Assembly: GCA_018302785.1 (NCBI GenBank)
Contig: JAGVZF010000034.1
Coordinates: 1-57,417 of the forward strand
DNA: 57,417 nt
DNA from: Candidatus Woesearchaeota archaeon
GTDB lineage: Archaea; Nanobdellota; Nanobdellia; SCGC-AAA011-G17; JAGVZF01
Direction of reading: 5' to 3'
In this document: positions 32,494 to 55,980 of the stretch, piece after piece
How the letters are laid out: the number at the start of each line of letters is the position of its first letter
Position numbering within the stretch: the stretch's first letter is position 1
Position numbers and translations under genes: made by a program
Notes under the pieces: model-generated
What the model was told of the DNA's origin: nothing
The model's input: the letters and a program-made list of their open reading frames with translations, nothing else
The model's database searches: none

Positions 32494-33156
32494 ATGGATG
32501 CTGTAATTTTAGCTGCAGGTAAAGGAGAAAGACTAAAACCGTTAACTGATAATATACCAAAAGGTATGGTAATAATTGATAATAAACCTATATTAGAACA
32601 CACAATAAAATTACTTGTTAAAAATAGAATAAACAAAATATACATAGTAGTTAATTATAAAAAAGAAATAATAATTAATTTCGTAGATTCTATAAAAAAT
32701 AAATACAAATTAGAAGCATATTATATACATCAACAAGAATTATTAGGCACTGCGCATGCAACATCTTTGATTCCTAATAATATAAGCAATCCTTTTTTAT
32801 TAATACTTGGAGATGTTGTGTTTTACGATTTCCCAAATAGTTTACCATTAAAACCAACAATATTTGTAAAAAAAACAGATGACACAATAAACAAAGGGAT
32901 TATAGAAATAAAAAATGGAATAATAACAAATTTTCATTATAATAAGGAGAAACTAAATAAAGAGAAATTTGTAGATATAGGTTTTATGGTACTTACAAAA
33001 GAAGTTATAGAAAATTGTAAAGAATATAAATATATTAAAGATACTCCTATAGTAGAAGTAATTAATAATATGATACAAAACGGAGTTAAGTTCTTAGCAG
33101 AAAATTTCAAAGGTGAAATAAGACATATAACCTCAATTGAAGATATTAATAGGTAG
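32494..33156 (+). CDS. Sugar-phosphate nucleotidyltransferase
   Basis: AVILAAGKGERLKPLT..IPK, Q..LLGTAHA, GD motifs. Confidence 0.9.
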   Translation: MDAVILAAGKGERLKPLTDNIPKGMVIIDNKPILEHTIKLLVKNRINKIYIVVNYKKEIIINFVDSIKNKYKLEAYYIHQQELLGTAHATSLIPNNISNPFLLILGDVVFYDFPNSLPLKPTIFVKKTDDTINKGIIEIKNGIITNFHYNKEKLNKEKFVDIGFMVLTKEVIENCKEYKYIKDTPIVEVINNMIQNGVKFLAENFKGEIRHITSIEDINR

Positions 33157-43072: not shown

Positions 43073-44197
43073 TTATCCGGAAGCATGATCTACCTTGATA
43101 TCTTTAAATCCTAATCCGGTGGTCTCGGCAATATGATTCTTAATGTTAACTCTTTGCTTATTTAACTCACGTATTGCTATAGCCCTTCTACCAACTTCCT
43201 CAAGACCAAGTTTACCTTCTTTTCCACTTCTTATATCAAATTCCAAGTCCCAAATACCTTTATTAACACTATAAAGATCACTAAACCAATTAGGTTTAAT
43301 TTCAACGCCACTCTTTTGATATTCATTTAGAGCAAAAGTGTAAGAATCATACTCTTTTTTTAATGATTCATCCCCTAGCCTCTCTATTTTCAATTTTAAT
43401 ATAGACAACCGATCTATGATGTCTGATAAAGGCACCTTAACAAACTTATCTGGAGCATGAATAAATCTTCCAAAAGTAAATATGCCTTGAACTCTATTTA
43501 AAGACACTAAGCCAGGAATTAAATCATCCTCAATACTAGATGTCTTTTCATGAAAATAATCAAAAATTTCGTAATTAAAAAGGTAAACACCAGCATTAAT
43601 TATATTAGATCCTGTTACTAAACCTCTTCTAAAGTCTACAATTATCCTTCCATCTAAGACCACATTTGTAGCATTAGGAGATTCAGTTGATGTAATCAGC
43701 CCAACAGTTGCTAAATAATCATCCCTGATATGTTCTTTTAACATATTTTTTAAGTTAAAGTTATTAAAAGTATCTGCATTCATCACTAAAAAGGTGTTTT
43801 TAAGTTGGTCTTTCACTAATAATAAGGCCAACGCTGTGCCTTTACTGTCTTTTTCATCAATTAATTGTAATTTAGAGCTGTTTTGTATATTAGCAGTTGA
43901 CTCAATTAAAGAATCATTTAATTTAGTCACTAGATACACTTCATTAATACCATTTGAAGTAAGAAATTTTAAATTATGCTCAATTAAAGTCATATCTCCA
44001 AATTTTTGGAATAAAAATTTTTGGTGTTGCTCTTTTATAAGTAAAACTGCTTGGGACAAAGGAGAATATTTGACAGCTTTATTTAAAAGCATGCCTATAG
44101 CATGAGATCTTGACGAAATATTCTCTTTTTCCATAAAATTATCTATACAATCTAATAAATATTGGTCCATAGATATAGCTATTTTCACCTTTTTCAT
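43073..44197 (-). CDS. Fusion of ribbon-helix-helix (CopG/NikR-type), degenerate sugar-phosphate nucleotidyltransferase and DUF6165/DUF4254-like helical domain; putative regulator
   Basis: KVKIAISMD..LL..ID.......SRS.AI..LL; GTA.AL...FLVMNAD...INAGVY.F but no GGxGxR loop; SDIIDRLSIL.LK...N..IWDLE..IR...N.QR..IKN.I. Confidence 0.75.
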   Translation of the reverse strand: MKKVKIAISMDQYLLDCIDNFMEKENISSRSHAIGMLLNKAVKYSPLSQAVLLIKEQHQKFLFQKFGDMTLIEHNLKFLTSNGINEVYLVTKLNDSLIESTANIQNSSKLQLIDEKDSKGTALALLLVKDQLKNTFLVMNADTFNNFNLKNMLKEHIRDDYLATVGLITSTESPNATNVVLDGRIIVDFRRGLVTGSNIINAGVYLFNYEIFDYFHEKTSSIEDDLIPGLVSLNRVQGIFTFGRFIHAPDKFVKVPLSDIIDRLSILKLKIERLGDESLKKEYDSYTFALNEYQKSGVEIKPNWFSDLYSVNKGIWDLEFDIRSGKEGKLGLEEVGRRAIAIRELNKQRVNIKNHIAETTGLGFKDIKVDHASG

Positions 44198-44213
44198 TTT
44201 AATAATTATTAAA
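44198..44213. promoter_or_regulatory. Perfect 16-bp palindrome TTTAATAATTATTAAA next to the RHH-fusion start codon; candidate operator
   Basis: Read directly; lies between a minus-strand TATA-like element (about 44221-44234) and ATG 44197. AT-only, so chance occurrence is possible. Confidence 0.35.
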
Positions 44214-44272
44214 GTATTAACTTATAACAATTTCTATTATTTAAAAACAAATTTTAACTATATAAAAACAAC

Positions 44273-44287
44273 AAAAGATTTATAAAT
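44273..44287 (+). promoter_or_regulatory. BRE/TATA promoter for the gene at 44326
   Basis: AAAAGATTTATAAAT. Confidence 0.55.
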
Positions 44288-44325
44288 TATAAGGTAGGAA
44301 TTATTCATACCAACAGAAGTTAACC

Positions 44326-45705
44326 ATGAAAACACTATTTATATATTGGAAACACCCAATAGAGCCTTTAGGTATTATGTATTTATCTGCAGCCCTTAAA
44401 GAAGCAGGACACAAAACCAAACTAGTTGCAATTGGTAAAGATAACATAGAAGAAGTAGTAATGTCATTTAAACCAGATATTATTGCTGCCAGTATTATGA
44501 CTGGGAGCCAAGGAGAATTCATTAATCTAATTAATTCATTAAAAAAAAAGCATGATTTCTTTGCAGTAATGGGGGGTATACATCCTACTTTCTATCCAGA
44601 TGAAATAAAAGCAGAAGGTCTAGACTGTGTTATTCTTGGGGAAGCAGAAGAAGCATTAGTTGAATTAGCTAATAGCATTGAAAATAAAGAAAACCTCACA
44701 AAAATACCAAATATTTGGGTAAAAATAAAAGGCAAAGTATTCAAAAATGAGAAAAGGCCTCTTGAACAACATTTAGACAAATTACCTTTTGCTGATAGAG
44801 AAATTGTTTATGAACATGAATATTGGAAAAGTCAACCAATAAGACATTTTATAGCAGGAAGAGGTTGTCCATACAAATGCACATATTGTTTTAATCACGC
44901 GATGGTAAAAGAATATAAAGGAAATGGTAATTGGGTGAGATGGAGATCTGTTGATAAAGTAATTGAAGAAATTAAAGACGTACTAGAAAAATATGGTGGG
45001 GAAATGGTTTACTTTCAAGATGATACTTTTATATTAAATAGACAATGGCTGAATGAATTTTGCGAAAAATATCCAAAATCCATTAATAAACCGTTTCATT
45101 GTCATATAAGAGCCAATTTAGTAGATGAAGATATGGCAAAAAACCTTGGAAAAGCAGGTTGTTACTCAGTACATATGGCAATAGAAGCAGGCAATGATCA
45201 TATTAGAAATGACATATTAAAGAGAGAAATGTCAGATGAACAAATATTAAATGCTGCAAAATTCTTAAGAAAATATCAAATAAGAATTATGATGCAAAAC
45301 ATGATAGGATTGCCAACAGGTTCATTCAAAAATGATTTAGAAACCCTAAAAATAAATATGAAATGCAAGCCTACGTATGCATGGTGTTCAATATTCCAAC
45401 CATATCCAGGACTAGAATTAACAGAATTTGCAGCAGGAAAAAAATTATTAGAAGGAGACTATAAAGATATTACAACAAAATTCTTTGAAACAACAATTTT
45501 GAAAACTTACGATAAAAAGAAAGTATCAAACCTCCAAAAATGGTTTGCAATATGCGTTGATTTCCCCTTGATATATTATACAGGATTACTTCACTTGTTT
45601 GTAAATATGCCACGAAACAACTATACTCAAAAATTCTTTAACTGGGCATATGAAAAACATAGAAGTTGGAGAGATAATCACTTGTATGGCCTAAAACTAA
45701 ACTAG
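44326..45705 (+). CDS. B12-binding-domain radical SAM protein (class B-like)
   Basis: PLG.MYLSA.LK, GG.HPT, GEAE, RGCPYKCTYC, FQDDTF, IEAG, PYPG motifs. Confidence 0.93.
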   Translation: MKTLFIYWKHPIEPLGIMYLSAALKEAGHKTKLVAIGKDNIEEVVMSFKPDIIAASIMTGSQGEFINLINSLKKKHDFFAVMGGIHPTFYPDEIKAEGLDCVILGEAEEALVELANSIENKENLTKIPNIWVKIKGKVFKNEKRPLEQHLDKLPFADREIVYEHEYWKSQPIRHFIAGRGCPYKCTYCFNHAMVKEYKGNGNWVRWRSVDKVIEEIKDVLEKYGGEMVYFQDDTFILNRQWLNEFCEKYPKSINKPFHCHIRANLVDEDMAKNLGKAGCYSVHMAIEAGNDHIRNDILKREMSDEQILNAAKFLRKYQIRIMMQNMIGLPTGSFKNDLETLKINMKCKPTYAWCSIFQPYPGLELTEFAAGKKLLEGDYKDITTKFFETTILKTYDKKKVSNLQKWFAICVDFPLIYYTGLLHLFVNMPRNNYTQKFFNWAYEKHRSWRDNHLYGLKLN

Positions 45706-45738: not shown

Positions 45739-46635
45739 ATGATATCTATTATAATTACTTCTTATAAAGAGCCCCACACAGTAGGAAGGGCAATTGAAGC
45801 TATTATAAATCAAAACATTAAAGAAAAATATGAATTGATTTGTGCATCTCCAGATGAAGAAACAGCAAAAGTTGTTAAGACATACTCAAAATTAGATAGT
45901 AGAATTAAGTATTTTAAAGATCCTGGCAAAGGAAAAATGTTAGCACTCAACTTGCTTTTTAAAAAAATAAAAAGCGATATTATCATTTTAACTGACGGTG
46001 ACGTTTATCTATCTAATAATAGCGTTAGTGAAATAATTAAAGCATTTAGTAATAAAAGCGTTGGCTGTGTTGCAGGCAGGCCAGTTTCAATTGACAATAA
46101 AAAACAACTACTAGGATATTGGAGCCATTTGCTTACTCATGGTGCTCATTTAGCAAGATTAAAGAGGCATAAAAACTCCCAGTATTTCACTTGTTCTGGA
46201 TATCTTTTTGGATTTAGAAATGGGCTAATTAAAGAATTTCCAAGAAGTGTACCAGAAGACGCTGTAATACCATATATAGTACTTAAGAAAGGATACAAAT
46301 TGTCATACGCCCAAGAAGCAAAGGTCTTTGTAAGTTATCCAAAAAACATAATAGATTGGATTAAACAAAAGAAGAGAATTAATAAGGCATATCACAATAT
46401 CTATAGCATGATTATAGAAGGTGATAAAATTCCAAAAATGAAATCTATGAGAAATGAAATTATAGAAGGCACTATTATTGCTTTAAGTTATCCAAAAAAC
46501 ATAAGAGAATTTTTTTACACTTTAGCTTTATTTCCATTTAGACTTTTCGTGTGGTCCCAGTCTTTTTTTGATCATTATATTATTAGCAAAAAACACACAG
46601 ATGCTTGGGACCAAATAAAAAGCACCAAAACCTGA
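45739..46635 (+). CDS. Glycosyltransferase family 2
   Basis: ISIII..Y.E, GK..ALN, TDGD, ED, Q.KR motifs. Confidence 0.9.
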   Translation: MISIIITSYKEPHTVGRAIEAIINQNIKEKYELICASPDEETAKVVKTYSKLDSRIKYFKDPGKGKMLALNLLFKKIKSDIIILTDGDVYLSNNSVSEIIKAFSNKSVGCVAGRPVSIDNKKQLLGYWSHLLTHGAHLARLKRHKNSQYFTCSGYLFGFRNGLIKEFPRSVPEDAVIPYIVLKKGYKLSYAQEAKVFVSYPKNIIDWIKQKKRINKAYHNIYSMIIEGDKIPKMKSMRNEIIEGTIIALSYPKNIREFFYTLALFPFRLFVWSQSFFDHYIISKKHTDAWDQIKSTKT

Positions 46636-46681: not shown

Positions 46682-47287
46682 ATGGAAAATTCTGAAGAAA
46701 CAAACATACTTGAGAAGTACATAGATAATGTAGGGACAATTTTACAAGAATTAAAAAAATACAATAACGAAGTAAATCAAGCATCTGACAAAATAATACA
46801 TGCCTTAGAGAAAGGCAACAAGGTATTTATTTGTGGTAATGGGGGGAGCAATTGTGACACGCAACACATATCAGCAGAACTTACAGGTAGATTTCTAGAT
46901 GGTAGAGAAAGAAAAGGACTAGCTGCAATTGCCCTACCAACTTCTCTAGCAGCAGTTACAGCCATAGCAAATGATTATGGTTATGAATTTGTTTTTGAAA
47001 GAGAACTTCAATCTCTCTCCAATCCAGGAGATATTTTAATTGGTATATCAACAAGCGGAAATTCTACAAATGTCCTTAATGCAATAAAATATGCTAAAAA
47101 TAATAACATATATGTAATAAGTATCTTAGGTAAAACTGGGGGTAAAATAAAAGGACTTTCAGATATAGAATTTGTTGTTCCATCAAAAGAAACAGGTGTT
47201 ATTCAAATAGTACACTCAATTATATATCATGCTATATGCGATAAAATAGATGAATATTTCGTTAATAAAAATCAACCTAAGCAATAG
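46682..47287 (+). CDS. gmhA: Phosphoheptose isomerase (SIS domain)
   Basis: CGNGGS..D.QH..AEL.GRF, TA.ANDYGY..VF.R, STSGNS, IQ..H motifs. Confidence 0.93.
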   Translation: MENSEETNILEKYIDNVGTILQELKKYNNEVNQASDKIIHALEKGNKVFICGNGGSNCDTQHISAELTGRFLDGRERKGLAAIALPTSLAAVTAIANDYGYEFVFERELQSLSNPGDILIGISTSGNSTNVLNAIKYAKNNNIYVISILGKTGGKIKGLSDIEFVVPSKETGVIQIVHSIIYHAICDKIDEYFVNKNQPKQ

Positions 47288-47328: not shown

Positions 47329-48771
47329 ATGAAAACCACAATTGAAATAGTAAAGGATTTTGCTCATAAAAAAATAATGGTTATTGGAGATCTGATGTTA
47401 GATAGATATTTATTTGGAGAAGTTTCAAGAATATCCCCAGAAGCACCAATACAAATATTAAACGCACAATATAAGAAATATGCTCCTGGTGGTGCTGCTA
47501 ATTGTGCAGTAAACGCGTCAGCGCTTGGTGCAAAAACATCTATTTATGGAATTACTGGCGATGACCCAAATGGAAGAAAATTAGAATTATTGCTAAAAAA
47601 ACATAATATAGATACAAGTAATATAATATTTACTAAGAAATGCAAAACTATTGTTAAAGAAAGAATTGTATCTAATAATCAACAACTATTAAGAATAGAC
47701 TTTGAGGAACTTAATAGCTATAAGGGCATATCAAAAGATAAATTAATATTTGACATAAAAAAAGACATAAAAAAATTTGATGCTATCCTTGTCTCAGATT
47801 ATGCAAAAGGTCTAATAAATGTTGAAATTATGGAAACAATAAAAAACTCAAAAAAAGAATTTACTCCAATTATAGTAGACCCAAGACCTAAAAATAAAGA
47901 ATTATTTAAAAACGTTACTCTTATAAAACCAAATTTAAAAGAAGCTATGGAAATGTCTCCAAATAATAAATCTGTATATGATATAGGAATATTTTTGGCA
48001 AAAGAACTAAATTCAAATGTTTTAATTAGCAGAGGATCTGAAGGGATGTCCCTATTCTCAAAAGATTTAACTTATAAAGATATTCCAACTGAAGCAAAAG
48101 AAGTAAGAGATGTTTCTGGAGCAGGAGACACAGTAACTTCAACACTTGCATTAGCAATATGTGCAGGAGCTACACTAAATCAAGCTGCTATACTGGCAAA
48201 CCAAGCCGCAAGTATAGTAGTATCAAAATTCGGAACTGCAACAGTAACTCAAAAAGAATTATTAAGTTTAATTTCAACAGAAAATAAGAAAGTAAAAGAC
48301 TTAAATCAATTAAAAGAAATTATTAAAGACTATAAAAAAAGACATAAAAAAATCGTATTTACAAATGGTTGTTTTGATATATTACATCCAGGACATACAA
48401 AATTTTTATCAGAATCTAAGAAATTAGGAGACATCTTAGTAGTAGCCTTAAACAGTGATGAATCCGTTAGAAAATTAAAAGGAACTGGTAGACCAGTAAT
48501 TTCAGAAAAAGAAAGAGCTGAAGTAATATCTTCACTTGAATCAGTTGATTATGTAACTATATTTAAAGAAACTGAACCTTATAAAGTGATATCAGCCCTA
48601 AAACCAGACATTTACACAAAAGGAAAAGTATATTCTATGTCAGAACTTCCTAAAAATGAACTTAAGTCAATAAAAAGTACAAATTGCAAAGTAGTATTTA
48701 TTCCAAAAAAAGAAAATTTTTCTACAACAAATATTTTACAAAAAGTAAATAATTCAAAAAATGGAATCTGA
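47329..48771 (+). CDS. hldE: Bifunctional heptose-7-P kinase / heptose-1-P nucleotidyltransferase
   Basis: GD.MLD.Y..G...RISPEAP, SDYAKG, DVSGAGDT; FTNGCFDILHPGH, NSD.SV..LKG..RP, STT motifs. Confidence 0.96.
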   Translation: MKTTIEIVKDFAHKKIMVIGDLMLDRYLFGEVSRISPEAPIQILNAQYKKYAPGGAANCAVNASALGAKTSIYGITGDDPNGRKLELLLKKHNIDTSNIIFTKKCKTIVKERIVSNNQQLLRIDFEELNSYKGISKDKLIFDIKKDIKKFDAILVSDYAKGLINVEIMETIKNSKKEFTPIIVDPRPKNKELFKNVTLIKPNLKEAMEMSPNNKSVYDIGIFLAKELNSNVLISRGSEGMSLFSKDLTYKDIPTEAKEVRDVSGAGDTVTSTLALAICAGATLNQAAILANQAASIVVSKFGTATVTQKELLSLISTENKKVKDLNQLKEIIKDYKKRHKKIVFTNGCFDILHPGHTKFLSESKKLGDILVVALNSDESVRKLKGTGRPVISEKERAEVISSLESVDYVTIFKETEPYKVISALKPDIYTKGKVYSMSELPKNELKSIKSTNCKVVFIPKKENFSTTNILQKVNNSKNGI

Positions 48772-50323
48772 AGACCAAAATGAAAAACAAAACACGAATG
48801 ATATAACTACAAAGGAAACTAAAGTCGTAAGTAACAATAAAGGATATTTAGCATTATATATAATTATTGCAATATTGATTTTTGCATTTATTCTAAGAAC
48901 ATATTACTTCATAGAAACAAAAGATCAATTAGTATGGTGGGATGAAGCAGAATATCTTGTAAAGGCAAAGTCAATTGCCCTAGGTACATCAGATCAAGGT
49001 TGGAATCCATTAAGAGAATTATTCATGTCATTTTTTTGGGCATTTTTTTATAAATTAGGTGCAACAGAAACTATAATTAGAATAAGTTCATTAATTATAT
49101 CAATCTTGTCAATATTTCTAACTTATTTAGTAGGAAAAGAAATATTTAACAAATACGTCGGATTAATTGCAGCATTTATTATGGCAATTTTAAACCAGCA
49201 TATATTTTTTAGTCTCAGAATGTTGATAGATATTCCTGCTTCTGTATTTTGGTTATCATCAATCTACTTCTTCTGGAAAGGTTATGTAAAAGAGAATAAA
49301 CCAAAATACTTAATTTTATCAGGAGTATTTTTAGCAATTGGTTTTCTTGCTCATTATTCACTTTTATTCCTATTTATTGCTTATGCATTATTTATATTAA
49401 TCACTAAAAATATTAAATTTGTAAAAGACAAAAATATTTGGCTAACATTAGTAACAATAATAATTCTAGTGAGTCCATATATAATATGGTCATTAATAAA
49501 ATATAAAACCCCCCTTCCAAGATATGCTGCAGCATTTGTAAGCGCAGAAACATCAAAATTTACACTTTCTGCATGGGATGTATACATTAAATATCTACCA
49601 CTACATCTTGATATTTTATTATTGCTTATTTTTATAGTAGGTTTAATCTTAATATTAATAAACGTATTATTAAGTCTTGATTTTATAATAAAAGGAAAAG
49701 AAAACTCAACATATAAATATTTATATACTTTACTATGGATTATTGTTCCATTTTTTATTTATACTTATGCAAGTATTGAAGGTGGAGGATATGCAGAACC
49801 AAGGTATTTAATATTAATGCTACCGCAAATAAGTATAATTGCTGCACTAGGACTAGAAAAACTTTATAATTTAATAAAATCAAAAAACAAACTAATTGCT
49901 ATAGCGGCAGTTTTATTAATATTAATATTTTCAATATTTATACAAATTAGAGCTGCAGATTCATTAATCAAGAGTAAATTAGGACTACAGCTTCAAGAAT
50001 TTAAAAATGCTGCTTTTTATGTTAAAGAAAACACAAATAAAAAAGACACCGTAATCATAAATAGCATGCAAATGGAATTATCTTATTACTCAGAAAGAAG
50101 AATACTAGGCTTTGGATTAAATGAAACTACCCTTTTATCTTCGATTAAAAATCAAAATGCTAAATATATCTTGCTAAATGCCCTATATCCATCAGAGCAA
50201 TGGATGTACGAATTTCCATCAAAACATCAAGATATATTAGAACTAGAACAAGCATATTTTGCAGATAAAGAAAAAACACAGCCCATTGCAGCAATATACA
50301 AAATAAAATCTACGAATCCTTAA
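48761..50323 (+). CDS. GT-C membrane glycosyltransferase (ArnT/PMT_2-like, lipid-P-sugar donor)
   Basis: WWDEAEY after TM1, R...D.P, EPRY...P motifs; about 13 TM and a C-terminal soluble domain. Confidence 0.88.
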   Translation: MESEDQNEKQNTNDITTKETKVVSNNKGYLALYIIIAILIFAFILRTYYFIETKDQLVWWDEAEYLVKAKSIALGTSDQGWNPLRELFMSFFWAFFYKLGATETIIRISSLIISILSIFLTYLVGKEIFNKYVGLIAAFIMAILNQHIFFSLRMLIDIPASVFWLSSIYFFWKGYVKENKPKYLILSGVFLAIGFLAHYSLLFLFIAYALFILITKNIKFVKDKNIWLTLVTIIILVSPYIIWSLIKYKTPLPRYAAAFVSAETSKFTLSAWDVYIKYLPLHLDILLLLIFIVGLILILINVLLSLDFIIKGKENSTYKYLYTLLWIIVPFFIYTYASIEGGGYAEPRYLILMLPQISIIAALGLEKLYNLIKSKNKLIAIAAVLLILIFSIFIQIRAADSLIKSKLGLQLQEFKNAAFYVKENTNKKDTVIINSMQMELSYYSERRILGFGLNETTLLSSIKNQNAKYILLNALYPSEQWMYEFPSKHQDILELEQAYFADKEKTQPIAAIYKIKSTNP

Positions 50324-54465: not shown

Positions 54466-55980
54466 CTACTTAAATTTAGGTATCATTGTCTTGATAAGCA
54501 TCAAATCATCTTTACTAACTGATTTAAACAATAACAAGAATACAAAATAAATAATTAAGCTAATTATACCTATTAATCCTAAAGATATCCATGCAACATC
54601 TATCTTCAGAAAATCCTTTAACAAAAATCCAACAAAAAAAGCAATTAATGCTGCAGATAATGCTCTTAATAACACATTACTAAATGGATGCATTTTTGTA
54701 CATAAATATGTCTTTATAGTTAATGTAATATACCAAACAACAAAAGTAACAACTGCTGCAATTGCAGCACCCATCATACCATATTTAGGAATTAAAGTTA
54801 AATTCAAAACAACATTTAATATTGTAACGAAAATACTATTAAATAAAATAAATTTAGTTTGTTTTATACTTTGAAGAACTCCACTTGGTTGCTGTAATAG
54901 AGAATAAATAAAATATCCAAAACTTAAAACAATTAAAACTAAATATGCTTGCATATAATCAGGTCCAAATAAAACAAGCAATACTTCCTTCGGAAACAAA
55001 ATTAATATTAACAAAACTGGAAGATTCAAAAAGAAAATCCATTTACTTGTAGTTTTATATATTCTAGCAACTTCATCTTTACTTTCTTTTGCATAAAGTT
55101 CAGTAATTATAGGAACAAAAAGAAAAGTTATAGTAGTAGATGCAATTAAAAGCAAACCTGCCATCGGAAGTGCAGCATTATACAATCCAACTTCAGAAGC
55201 ACTCTTAAAAATACCTATAAATATATTATCACCCCAGCTTTGTACCATACCTATTATTGAAACAAATGTTAATGGCCATGTATAAGCTGCAAGTTCCTTA
55301 AAATTCTTAATAGCTTTAATATTACTTTTAAAGATTGGAAAAACTTTTTTTTGTACTAAATAAATAAAAATTATTGCGCTTGATGCTAAAGCTATTACAT
55401 ATCCATAAACAGCTCCAAGTAATCCTAAACCTAGTAAAAATAAAATTAAAGTTACAATAAACTGAATTCCTGACTCAGAAACGTTTCTAACAAAAATGTT
55501 ATATTTAACTCTCTGAAACGCTTGCGTAACACTCTCTAGATTACTAACTACCACAACAATAGGTATAAGTAAAGAAAAAATCCTTAAAATAGGAATTAAT
55601 GCCTCGTTATGGAATATCCCATTAGCAATATTACTAGAAAATATAAATAATATTACCATTAACAAAATTCCTAAAGGTAAAGTAATCTTTAAACTAGACA
55701 AAATTGTTCCTTTAATTCTTGCTGAATCATTTTTTCCTTTATAAAAAGAAACAAATCTTAGGACTCCAGATGGAAATCCTAATAATGCTACAGCAGTAAA
55801 AAATCCCACAACAGCAAATCCCAAATTTAATAATCCATAAGAATCAGGCCCTAAATATCTTGCTACAATTAATCTATAAAGATAGTTGAATATCTTAGAT
55901 AAAATCATACCGGCTAAAACAATCATAGAACCTTTTGCAATTTTTTCTAATTCTTTGTCAACCATGTGTCTAACTGCCAA
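54466..55980 (-). CDS. Oligosaccharide flippase (MOP/Wzx, AglR-like); true start may be ATG 55965
   Basis: About 14 TM; AR.LGP..YG, D...IG......VG.YNAA, N..LN..LIP.YG..GAA.A motifs. Confidence 0.9.
   Translation of the reverse strand: MAVRHMVDKELEKIAKGSMIVLAGMILSKIFNYLYRLIVARYLGPDSYGLLNLGFAVVGFFTAVALLGFPSGVLRFVSFYKGKNDSARIKGTILSSLKITLPLGILLMVILFIFSSNIANGIFHNEALIPILRIFSLLIPIVVVVSNLESVTQAFQRVKYNIFVRNVSESGIQFIVTLILFLLGLGLLGAVYGYVIALASSAIIFIYLVQKKVFPIFKSNIKAIKNFKELAAYTWPLTFVSIIGMVQSWGDNIFIGIFKSASEVGLYNAALPMAGLLLIASTTITFLFVPIITELYAKESKDEVARIYKTTSKWIFFLNLPVLLILILFPKEVLLVLFGPDYMQAYLVLIVLSFGYFIYSLLQQPSGVLQSIKQTKFILFNSIFVTILNVVLNLTLIPKYGMMGAAIAAVVTFVVWYITLTIKTYLCTKMHPFSNVLLRALSAALIAFFVGFLLKDFLKIDVAWISLGLIGIISLIIYFVFLLLFKSVSKDDLMLIKTMIPKFK

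Follow-up and report, generated by a model that had tools for sequence, protein, structure and literature searches.

A candidate regulator pairing a ribbon-helix-helix domain with a degenerate sugar nucleotidyltransferase fold beside heptose genes of Woesearchaeota

Introduction

Enzyme-derived sensors on transcription factors are known, and the ROK repressors Mlc and NagC, RpiR with its SIS domain, and SorC/CggR are one-component repressors of this kind. A catalytically dead pyrophosphorylase that reads the level of a sugar nucleotide is likewise a known idea, of the GMPPA/eIF2B type. Here we describe a gene of a Candidatus Woesearchaeota archaeon in which the two ideas appear to meet. It lies on the 57,417-nt contig JAGVZF010000034.1 (GenBank assembly GCA_018302785.1), the whole of which is called the window below. 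The open reading frame (ORF) at 43073..44197 on the minus strand encodes a protein of 374 aa with a predicted ribbon-helix-helix (RHH) domain, a pseudo-nucleotidyltransferase domain and a DUF6165-like domain.

The ROK, RpiR and SorC/CggR repressors share with this protein the joining of a DNA-binding domain to a silent fold of sugar metabolism that senses a pathway sugar, and a place beside the controlled genes; they differ from it in their helix-turn-helix domains, in their kinase, isomerase or deaminase folds, and in being mostly bacterial. GMPPA, KONJAC and the gamma and epsilon subunits of eIF2B have the same fold with a degenerate catalytic loop. These proteins are eukaryotic, carry a left-handed beta-helix as C-terminal domain and control a partner by protein contact, whereas the present protein is archaeal, lacks the beta-helix and is fused to a predicted DNA-binding domain.

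NikR is the best characterised RHH protein among the matches, and its plan, RHH followed by a ligand-binding domain, is the one seen here. The E. coli NikR operator, given as GTATGA-N16-TCATAC in PMC7055735, has the very same half-site hexamer, GTATGA/TCATAC, as the putative operator described below. The half-sites of the present operator are, however, 5 bp apart instead of the 16 of that E. coli sequence (PMC7055735), the aligned strand residues are K/A/S here and R/T/T in NikR, and the sensor is a nucleotidyltransferase fold in contrast to the ACT-like nickel-binding domain of NikR. The differences in spacing and strand residues indicate that the likeness to NikR is a resemblance and not membership.

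DPANN archaea have tiny genomes with few recognisable regulators and, to our knowledge, no genetic system. In the present case, comparison alone gave a candidate regulator, its operator and its target operon, which are open to testing in vitro. Full-text literature searches returned no description of an RHH domain joined to a GT-A-like nucleotidyltransferase sensor, and we know of no earlier prokaryotic case of a dead sugar-nucleotide pyrophosphorylase serving as the sensor of a transcription factor. What is new is thus neither the enzyme-derived sensor nor the pseudo-pyrophosphorylase, but their combination with an RHH domain as a conserved archaeal family with a defined putative operator. 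If the proposed function is true, the GMPPA/eIF2B theme would be extended from protein-protein control to direct gene control.

Domain organization of the predicted regulator

The original prediction, made from the sequence letters of the window, had assigned the range 43073..44213 to this element. The segment 43073-44197 is indeed coding, and the last 16 nt, 44198-44213, are a non-coding palindrome considered at the end of this paper. The three domains that it had proposed were recovered by the profile and structure searches, as follows. ORFs were called by a simple longest-ORF rule, with start codons placed by motif.

The predicted RHH DNA-binding domain comprises residues 1-44 (44066..44197, minus strand). 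The NikR models of NCBIfam matched residues 3-41 weakly (E 0.005), and Pfam RHH_1 matched 15 of 47 family members, with a best E value of 2.5e-5. When a profile of 46 N-termini was compared with the PDB, RHH proteins made up the nine best of 12 matches, the foremost being the antitoxin Rv0298 (E 0.003) and E. coli NikR (E 0.004). The predicted structure places helices at residues 12-25 and 30-43. Conservation in this region was strongest at a K-I-A-I-S strand and an S-R-S-Q-A-I-E helix start, and it is through this strand and helix start that RHH proteins touch DNA. The NikR models extended over residues 3-47 only; the C-terminal ACT-like domain for tetramerisation and nickel binding was not present, and the nucleotidyltransferase fold stood in its place. 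A two-copy structure prediction of the full-length protein, run without controls, scored 0.24 and 0.17 against a mark of 0.42.

Residues 49-250 (43448..44053, minus strand) form a catalytically degenerate fold of the sugar-1-phosphate nucleotidyltransferase type. The original prediction had proposed an HddC/GMPP-like fold with a replaced loop and retained motifs, and this was borne out by Pfam, Foldseek and alignment to intact enzymes. Pfam NTP_transferase (PF00483) matched residues 60-217 with an E value of 1e-11, covering only profile positions 22-190 of 245, and the PDB profile alignment similarly started only past the catalytic loop. In the AlphaFold model of the 374-aa protein (mean predicted local distance difference test score, pLDDT, 81), the best Foldseek matches were GMPP/VTC1 (7x8k, E 6e-18) and HddC (5xhw, TM 0.77 on the target), at a probability of 1.00. 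GMPPA (7d72), KJC2 (8yre) and eIF2B subunits were found among the structural and sequence neighbours.

The domain was aligned with five enzymes having an intact loop, namely the nucleotidyltransferase encoded at 32494-33156 of the window, one from locus L101 and three from databases. A 10-residue gap fell exactly at the glycine-rich G-x-G-x-R loop, both in this comparison and in all 47 family representatives, and residues 54-64 (44006..44038, minus strand), the stand-in for the loop and the lysine of the P-K motif, are accordingly 10 residues shorter than in intact enzymes. The P-K lysine was absent from the protein and from all 47 representatives. The metal-binding Asp of the late D-I-G motif was replaced by His247, which was invariant in an alignment of 11 sequences, and the same loss extended across the 47 representatives. 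The best-conserved positions of the domain across the 47 members were G-T-A, D142, N-A-G-x-Y (N-A-G-V-Y in the window protein) and E223, with D142, G203, Y205 and E223 invariant or nearly so. HddC and GDP-mannose pyrophosphorylase, the best fold matches, have the G-T-A, G-D and N-A-G-x-Y motifs in common with the present protein, which differs from them in lacking the glycine-rich loop, the P-K lysine and the metal-binding Asp and falls far under the NCBIfam equivalog cutoffs (32.7 bits against a cutoff of 300 for the HddC equivalog NF049965). No hexapeptide-repeat Pfam match indicating a C-terminal left-handed beta-helix was detected; residues 254-373 form four helices instead. By every sequence criterion applied, the enzyme fold is dead. 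The names given to family proteins in databases are NDP-sugar pyrophosphorylases.

The combination of an RHH domain and a nucleotidyltransferase was also compared with toxin-antitoxin pairs of RHH protein and minimal nucleotidyltransferase, and this assignment was rejected as the fold is that of a sugar-1-phosphate nucleotidyltransferase by Foldseek and PDB profile. The window further encodes, at 32494-33156 on the plus strand, 10 kb from the regulator gene, a nucleotidyltransferase of 220 aa with the glycine-rich loop and the P-K lysine intact, which is likely the active sugar-1-phosphate nucleotidyltransferase of the region.

A conserved putative operator in the divergent promoter

The putative operator is the palindrome GTATGAA-N3-TTCATAC at 44294..44310, which has one mismatch, located 15 nt upstream of the ATG of the divergent radical SAM gene and 113 nt upstream of the regulator ATG. 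Its conservation was assessed in relatives obtained by tblastn of species-representative genomes, which gave at least 151 relatives; the locus analyses cover the best 80 of these. The operator count covered 75 sources (74 loci and the window), five loci of which the start codon could not be placed having been dropped. A site with at most two mismatches was present within 200 bp upstream of the regulator gene in 55 of the 75 sources. In these upstream regions such sites had a density of 3.97 per kb, compared with 0.016 per kb in the rest of the locus sequence (933 kb), an approximately 250-fold difference. Most of the perfect sites counted in that remainder were only slightly more distant on the upstream side, beyond an inserted gene; in several cases this was an EamA gene. 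The three fused relatives had perfect sites at -106, -80 and -107.

The genome holding the window (953 kb, 96% complete) contained 44294-44310 as its sole site with at most one mismatch. A wider regulon in this genome was not indicated, as no other such site was found and two-mismatch sites numbered 8 against 9 for the control. In 240 genomes of the order, perfect sites numbered five, each in a different genome, and the reversed control pattern had no match. A gene of the family was within about 150 bp in three of these cases.

An A/T-rich element was conserved on the regulator side of the operator, and its other strand reads as a transcription factor B recognition element (BRE) followed by a TATA box. 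In the window, this putative BRE/TATA element of the divergent operon, proposed from its sequence and conserved position, is at 44273..44292 on the plus strand, directly upstream of the operator. A TATA-like element was found within 22 bp on the regulator side in all 56 sources having a site with at most one mismatch, which alone is weak evidence in A/T-rich DNA. The start codon of the divergent gene was commonly 11-16 nt beyond the operator, the distance in the window being 15 nt. Archaeal repressors classically bind at such a place, with the TATA box on one side and the start site on the other. The palindrome also falls inside the fragment 44198-44325 that the original prediction had proposed for an electrophoretic mobility shift assay.

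In a sub-group without the palindrome (L053, L055 and L074), the ATG was immediately preceded by a shared sequence resembling GGTATGCAAAGGT, which in L074 read GGTATTCCAAAGT. The members also had in common a downstream gene for a protein of 524-526 aa; the copy of L055, the one scanned, had no Pfam match. This sub-group may have a different operator and a different target. Variants of the half-site reading GTATTAC were seen in L023, L060 and L063.

Heptose and glycosylation genes around the predicted regulator

The regulator gene is divergent from a run of five genes on the plus strand, as the original prediction had stated and the annotation of the neighbourhood confirmed. The run, which is the presumed target operon, opens with a B12-binding radical SAM enzyme (44326..45705) and continues with a family 2 glycosyltransferase (GT2; 45739..46635) of the type that is elsewhere fused to or next to DUF6165-like domains, a gmhA-like SIS phosphoheptose isomerase (46682..47287), a bifunctional hldE composed of a PfkB kinase and a cytidylyltransferase-like adenylyltransferase (47329..48771), and a GT-C (PMT_2) membrane glycosyltransferase as the last gene (48761..50323). 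The window has a G+C content of about 28% and also encodes AglB/STT3 and diphthamide synthase.

Synteny was scored in 79 sources (78 loci and the window), L005 and L012 not being scorable. Genes for SIS/gmhA, PfkB heptose kinase, GT9 heptosyltransferase or HldD-like epimerase were present within three genes on either side in 70 of the 79, and the upstream neighbour was divergent in 61 of the 70 sources having one. The common divergent operon consisted of gmhA, an unknown 297-aa protein and a kinase, or else of a cupin, an epimerase and a kinase, and the common downstream set, in convergent orientation, was GT9-DUF2304-GT2. In the window and in the fused relative L105, the divergent operon opens with orthologous B12-binding radical SAM genes in the same place, followed by the same type of GT2. 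Together with the operator present in 55 of 75 sources, this synteny supported the central proposal of the original prediction, a one-component regulator connected with heptose and glycosylation genes, while the operator itself had to be moved to 44294-44310. It also marks ADP-heptose synthesis as a conserved and presumably regulated pathway in Woesearchaeota, a group in which contact with host cells probably involves the surface glycans.

The possibility that the protein is the missing nucleotidyltransferase of the pathway was considered and ruled out. The hldE of the window is bifunctional, and 46 of the 80 loci have a separate HldC-like adenylyltransferase ORF in their flanks, so that a pathway with its own HldC or bifunctional hldE has no need of the regulator protein in this role.

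Three further features of these operons were observed. The radical SAM orthologue of L105 (L105:1120-3891, minus strand) has 923 aa when compared with 459 in the window; about 440 extra residues stand directly after the Cys-rich motif, the flanks being 59% identical to the window protein, and the insert looks like an intein. In 21 of the 79 sources (e.g., L052:6402-7295, minus strand), the genes for gmhA and the heptose kinase are separated by one for a conserved protein of about 300 aa, which had no Pfam match at E 1e-4 and is a candidate for an unknown enzyme of the archaeal heptose pathway. A small cupin (Cupin_2/mannose-6-phosphate isomerase-like) replaces gmhA beside the regulator in 34 of the 79 sources (e.g., L051:7516-7872), and the 430-aa kinase ORF of L105 (L105:6932-8224) ends in a cupin-like sequence; the cupin may be an alternative sedoheptulose-7-phosphate isomerase.

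Distribution of the family and origin of the fusion

The best 80 of the at least 151 relatives were all from metagenome-assembled genomes (MAGs) of the Woesearchaeota/Nanoarchaeota type, and all were proteins of about 250 aa consisting of the RHH domain and the dead fold only. This origin of the relatives, together with the AglB/STT3 and diphthamide synthase genes of the window, identifies the host as an archaeon of the DPANN type. No DUF6165-like ORF was found within 8 kb on either side in the 80 loci, and thus no split form was seen. The three-domain form was rare, with seven clusters at 90% identity and three metagenome contigs, and no fused form was detected in the 239 other genomes of the same order. 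The fusion is not an assembly artefact, an eventuality that the original prediction had raised against itself, as the 90% cluster of the protein itself was seen on 15 contigs, and six further clusters and three independent metagenome contigs had the same fusion.

A tree built from residues 1-252 united the seven fused proteins in one group (SH-aLRT 94) nested within the 250-aa forms, indicating that the fusion arose once. The genome of the window has a single copy of the gene, with no separate 250-aa paralogue, so the fused protein is the family orthologue and not a side branch. The three-domain architecture first proposed is thus present, but the core of the family is the two-domain RHH and pseudo-nucleotidyltransferase protein, to which the DUF6165-like part is a late addition in one small clade.

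A second, more distant family of RHH and nucleotidyltransferase-like proteins was noticed in L099:2989-3831 and about 25 genomes of the order. Its members have 280-295 aa, are 25-30% identical, partly keep the A-G-x-G loop and stand beside radical SAM and HldC-like genes. The theme of an RHH domain joined to a pyrophosphorylase fold is therefore broader than one family.

The C-terminal DUF6165-like domain

Residues 254-373 (43079..43438, minus strand) were assigned to a four-helix bundle resembling DUF6165 and DUF4254, both borderline. The DUF6165 model (PF19662) gave 24.0 bits with the whole protein and 28.1 bits with residues 250-374 alone, against a cutoff of 27, which makes the earlier assignment a borderline one, and DUF4254 (PF14063) gave 16.5-18.9 bits, under its cutoff. 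Of 72 relatives of this domain, 26 matched DUF6165 and 31 matched DUF4254 (E <= 0.01). Folded alone with AlphaFold2, the domain showed four helices at a pLDDT of 90.7. Foldseek against the PDB returned nothing at E <= 0.001, a wide VIA-align search returned generic helical bundles only (best Z 6.7, below the noise level quoted for helical models), and no PHROGs family matched. Look-alike clusters in the Atlas carry DUF6165/DUF4254 and are frequent in tailed-phage records.

The relatives of the domain are mostly standalone proteins of about 120 aa, along with fusions that carry GT2, GT4, methyltransferase or HAD domains; unlike these, it is joined to a regulator only in the present small clade. 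In one relative of the same order, a standalone copy with 64% identity is divergent from a GT2 gene and an hldE kinase gene, the GT2 being 43% identical to that of the window, and a database protein consists of the domain fused to the same type of GT2 (37% identical over the full length). This fusion and adjacency link the domain to GT2 glycosyltransferases, which gives DUF6165/DUF4254 a concrete functional neighbourhood. The statement in the original prediction that these domains occur with heptose genes was matched in part, by that one relative.

At the fusion junction, five of the six other fused clusters retain the Met-Met-Glu-(Ile/Met)-Pro-Leu start of the standalone proteins, which fits a simple read-through of two adjacent genes. 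Residue 255 of the window protein (43436-43438), the counterpart in the alignment of the Met that starts standalone DUF6165-like proteins, has a GTG codon, and the domain could in principle be translated on its own.

Proposed mechanism and alternative explanations

From these findings we infer that the protein is probably a local repressor of the divergent operon, with the dead enzyme domain as a sensor of a sugar nucleotide. The N-terminal RHH domain would bind GTATGAA-N3-TTCATAC at 44294-44310. With the operator located between the BRE/TATA element and the start codon, the bound protein would block the recruitment of RNA polymerase and hence the promoter of the operon from the radical SAM gene to the GT-C gene. 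The ligand of the nucleotidyltransferase-fold domain, which has lost the catalytic loop and metal-binding Asp and kept most of the pocket motifs, would be a pathway sugar nucleotide or sugar phosphate, the prime candidate being ADP-heptose or a relative, and this ligand would change DNA binding to give feedback control of the heptose supply. The C-terminal bundle is a later acquisition and would derive from a standalone gene usually found with the same GT2; docking to GT2 or extra oligomerisation are the likeliest options for its role.

Several observations weigh against this repressor model. Twenty of the 75 sources have no palindrome within 200 bp; some of them have a site further upstream, and some, such as L053, L055 and L074, have none. 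The one mismatch of the window site falls within a half-site. As the MAGs that supplied the loci are related, the loci are not independent of one another, and the counts carry less statistical weight than they suggest. A second candidate site, abutting the regulator ATG in many 250-aa loci and described in the next section, is nearly gone in the window, which makes autoregulation doubtful here. In intact enzymes, the lysine of the E-K motif binds the sugar phosphate. Most relatives retain this motif, but the window protein has R-R in its place and P0002, the relative nearest to that protein, has R-N; the pocket of the window protein may thus differ from that of the 250-aa family. Finally, a different chemistry is, strictly speaking, still compatible with the loss of the known catalytic motifs.

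The last two points touch on other explanations. The protein could be a regulator without a small-molecule sensor, in which the dead fold serves oligomerisation or binds a pathway protein (HldE/HldC, GT2 or GT9) in the manner of GMPPA-GMPPB, the protein contact being the signal. The pseudo-nucleotidyltransferases among its structural neighbours, GMPPA, KJC2 and the eIF2B subunits, do work inside protein complexes, the window protein lacks the phosphate-binding E-K motif, and the tie of the C-terminal domain to GT2 by fusion and adjacency hints at protein docking. This explanation is nevertheless unlikely, as G-T-A, D142, N-A-G-x-Y and E223 are the most conserved motifs across the 47 members, as a retained ligand site would be, and GMPPA itself binds GDP-mannose according to the title of entry 7d72. 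A protein that is enzyme and regulator at once, carrying out a non-canonical nucleotidyl transfer or related reaction and repressing the operon, would have parallels in NadR, BirA and PutA, which combine catalysis with repression, and would agree with the retained fold, the sugar and nucleotide pocket motifs and the place of the family within a nucleotide-sugar pathway. It appears rather improbable in view of the loss of the glycine-rich loop with its catalytic Arg, the P-K lysine and the metal-binding Asp in all aligned members, the HddC equivalog score far below its cutoff (32.7 against 300 bits), and the presence in the pathway of HldC or bifunctional HldE, with the intact-loop nucleotidyltransferase at 32494-33156 in addition.

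It is also conceivable that the protein does not bind DNA, its N-terminal 45 residues being an extension that only oligomerises or stabilises a pathway subunit lacking catalysis, with the palindrome read by another factor. The matches to known RHH models are all weak (E 0.003-0.005), with RHH_1 found in 15 of 47 members only. On the other hand, the palindrome tracks the gene, being enriched about 250-fold beside it, it is the sole near-perfect site in the genome of the window, three of the five perfect sites in 240 genomes are beside the gene, and N-terminal conservation peaks at the strand and helix start that contact DNA in RHH proteins; we hold this explanation to be very improbable. The repressor model could, lastly, be extended to two signals read at once, with the dead pocket reporting the pool of ADP-heptose or a related nucleoside diphosphate sugar and the DUF6165-like bundle docking the regulator onto the GT2 of the operon. 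Such an extension is quite unlikely to be correct. If true, it would couple the transcription of heptose and glycosylation genes both to the precursor level and to the state of the glycosyltransferase, as a sequestration switch of the Mlc-PtsG or PutA type, and, more widely, the DUF6165/DUF4254 domains found in bacteria and in phages would serve enzymes of glycan synthesis generally as docking modules.

Sequence adjoining the regulator start codon

Many 250-aa loci (L013-L080) contained, in the 30 bp leading up to the regulator ATG, a three-part site abutting the start codon, made up of GTAATAC or GTATGAA, TACTAC and TTCATAC in 10-bp steps. A [TA]CATAC half-site was found at most 45 bp from the regulator ATG in 42 of 74 sources. 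The position of this site suggests leaderless mRNAs and autorepression in the 250-aa family. In the window, one repeat of this proximal operator survives at 44214..44221, the first of the three, reading GTTAATAC on the strand of the gene.

The perfect 16-bp palindrome TTTAATAATTATTAAA at 44198..44213, which the original prediction had singled out next to the ATG, does exist and takes up the position of repeats two and three of the proximal site, which are lost here, but its role as operator was ruled out. Perfect palindromes of at least 16 bp numbered three in the window, when compared with 3.8 +/- 2.0 in first-order Markov simulations, and the sequence was neither conserved nor present upstream of the three fused relatives (L103-L105). 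The chance of at least one such palindrome in a 128-bp spacer of 16% G+C is about 0.03. The other two perfect 16-bp palindromes of the window are at 49711-49726 and 54754-54769; one is composed of A and T only, and the other (TGCTGCAATTGCAGCA) lies within a flippase-like ORF at 54466-55980.

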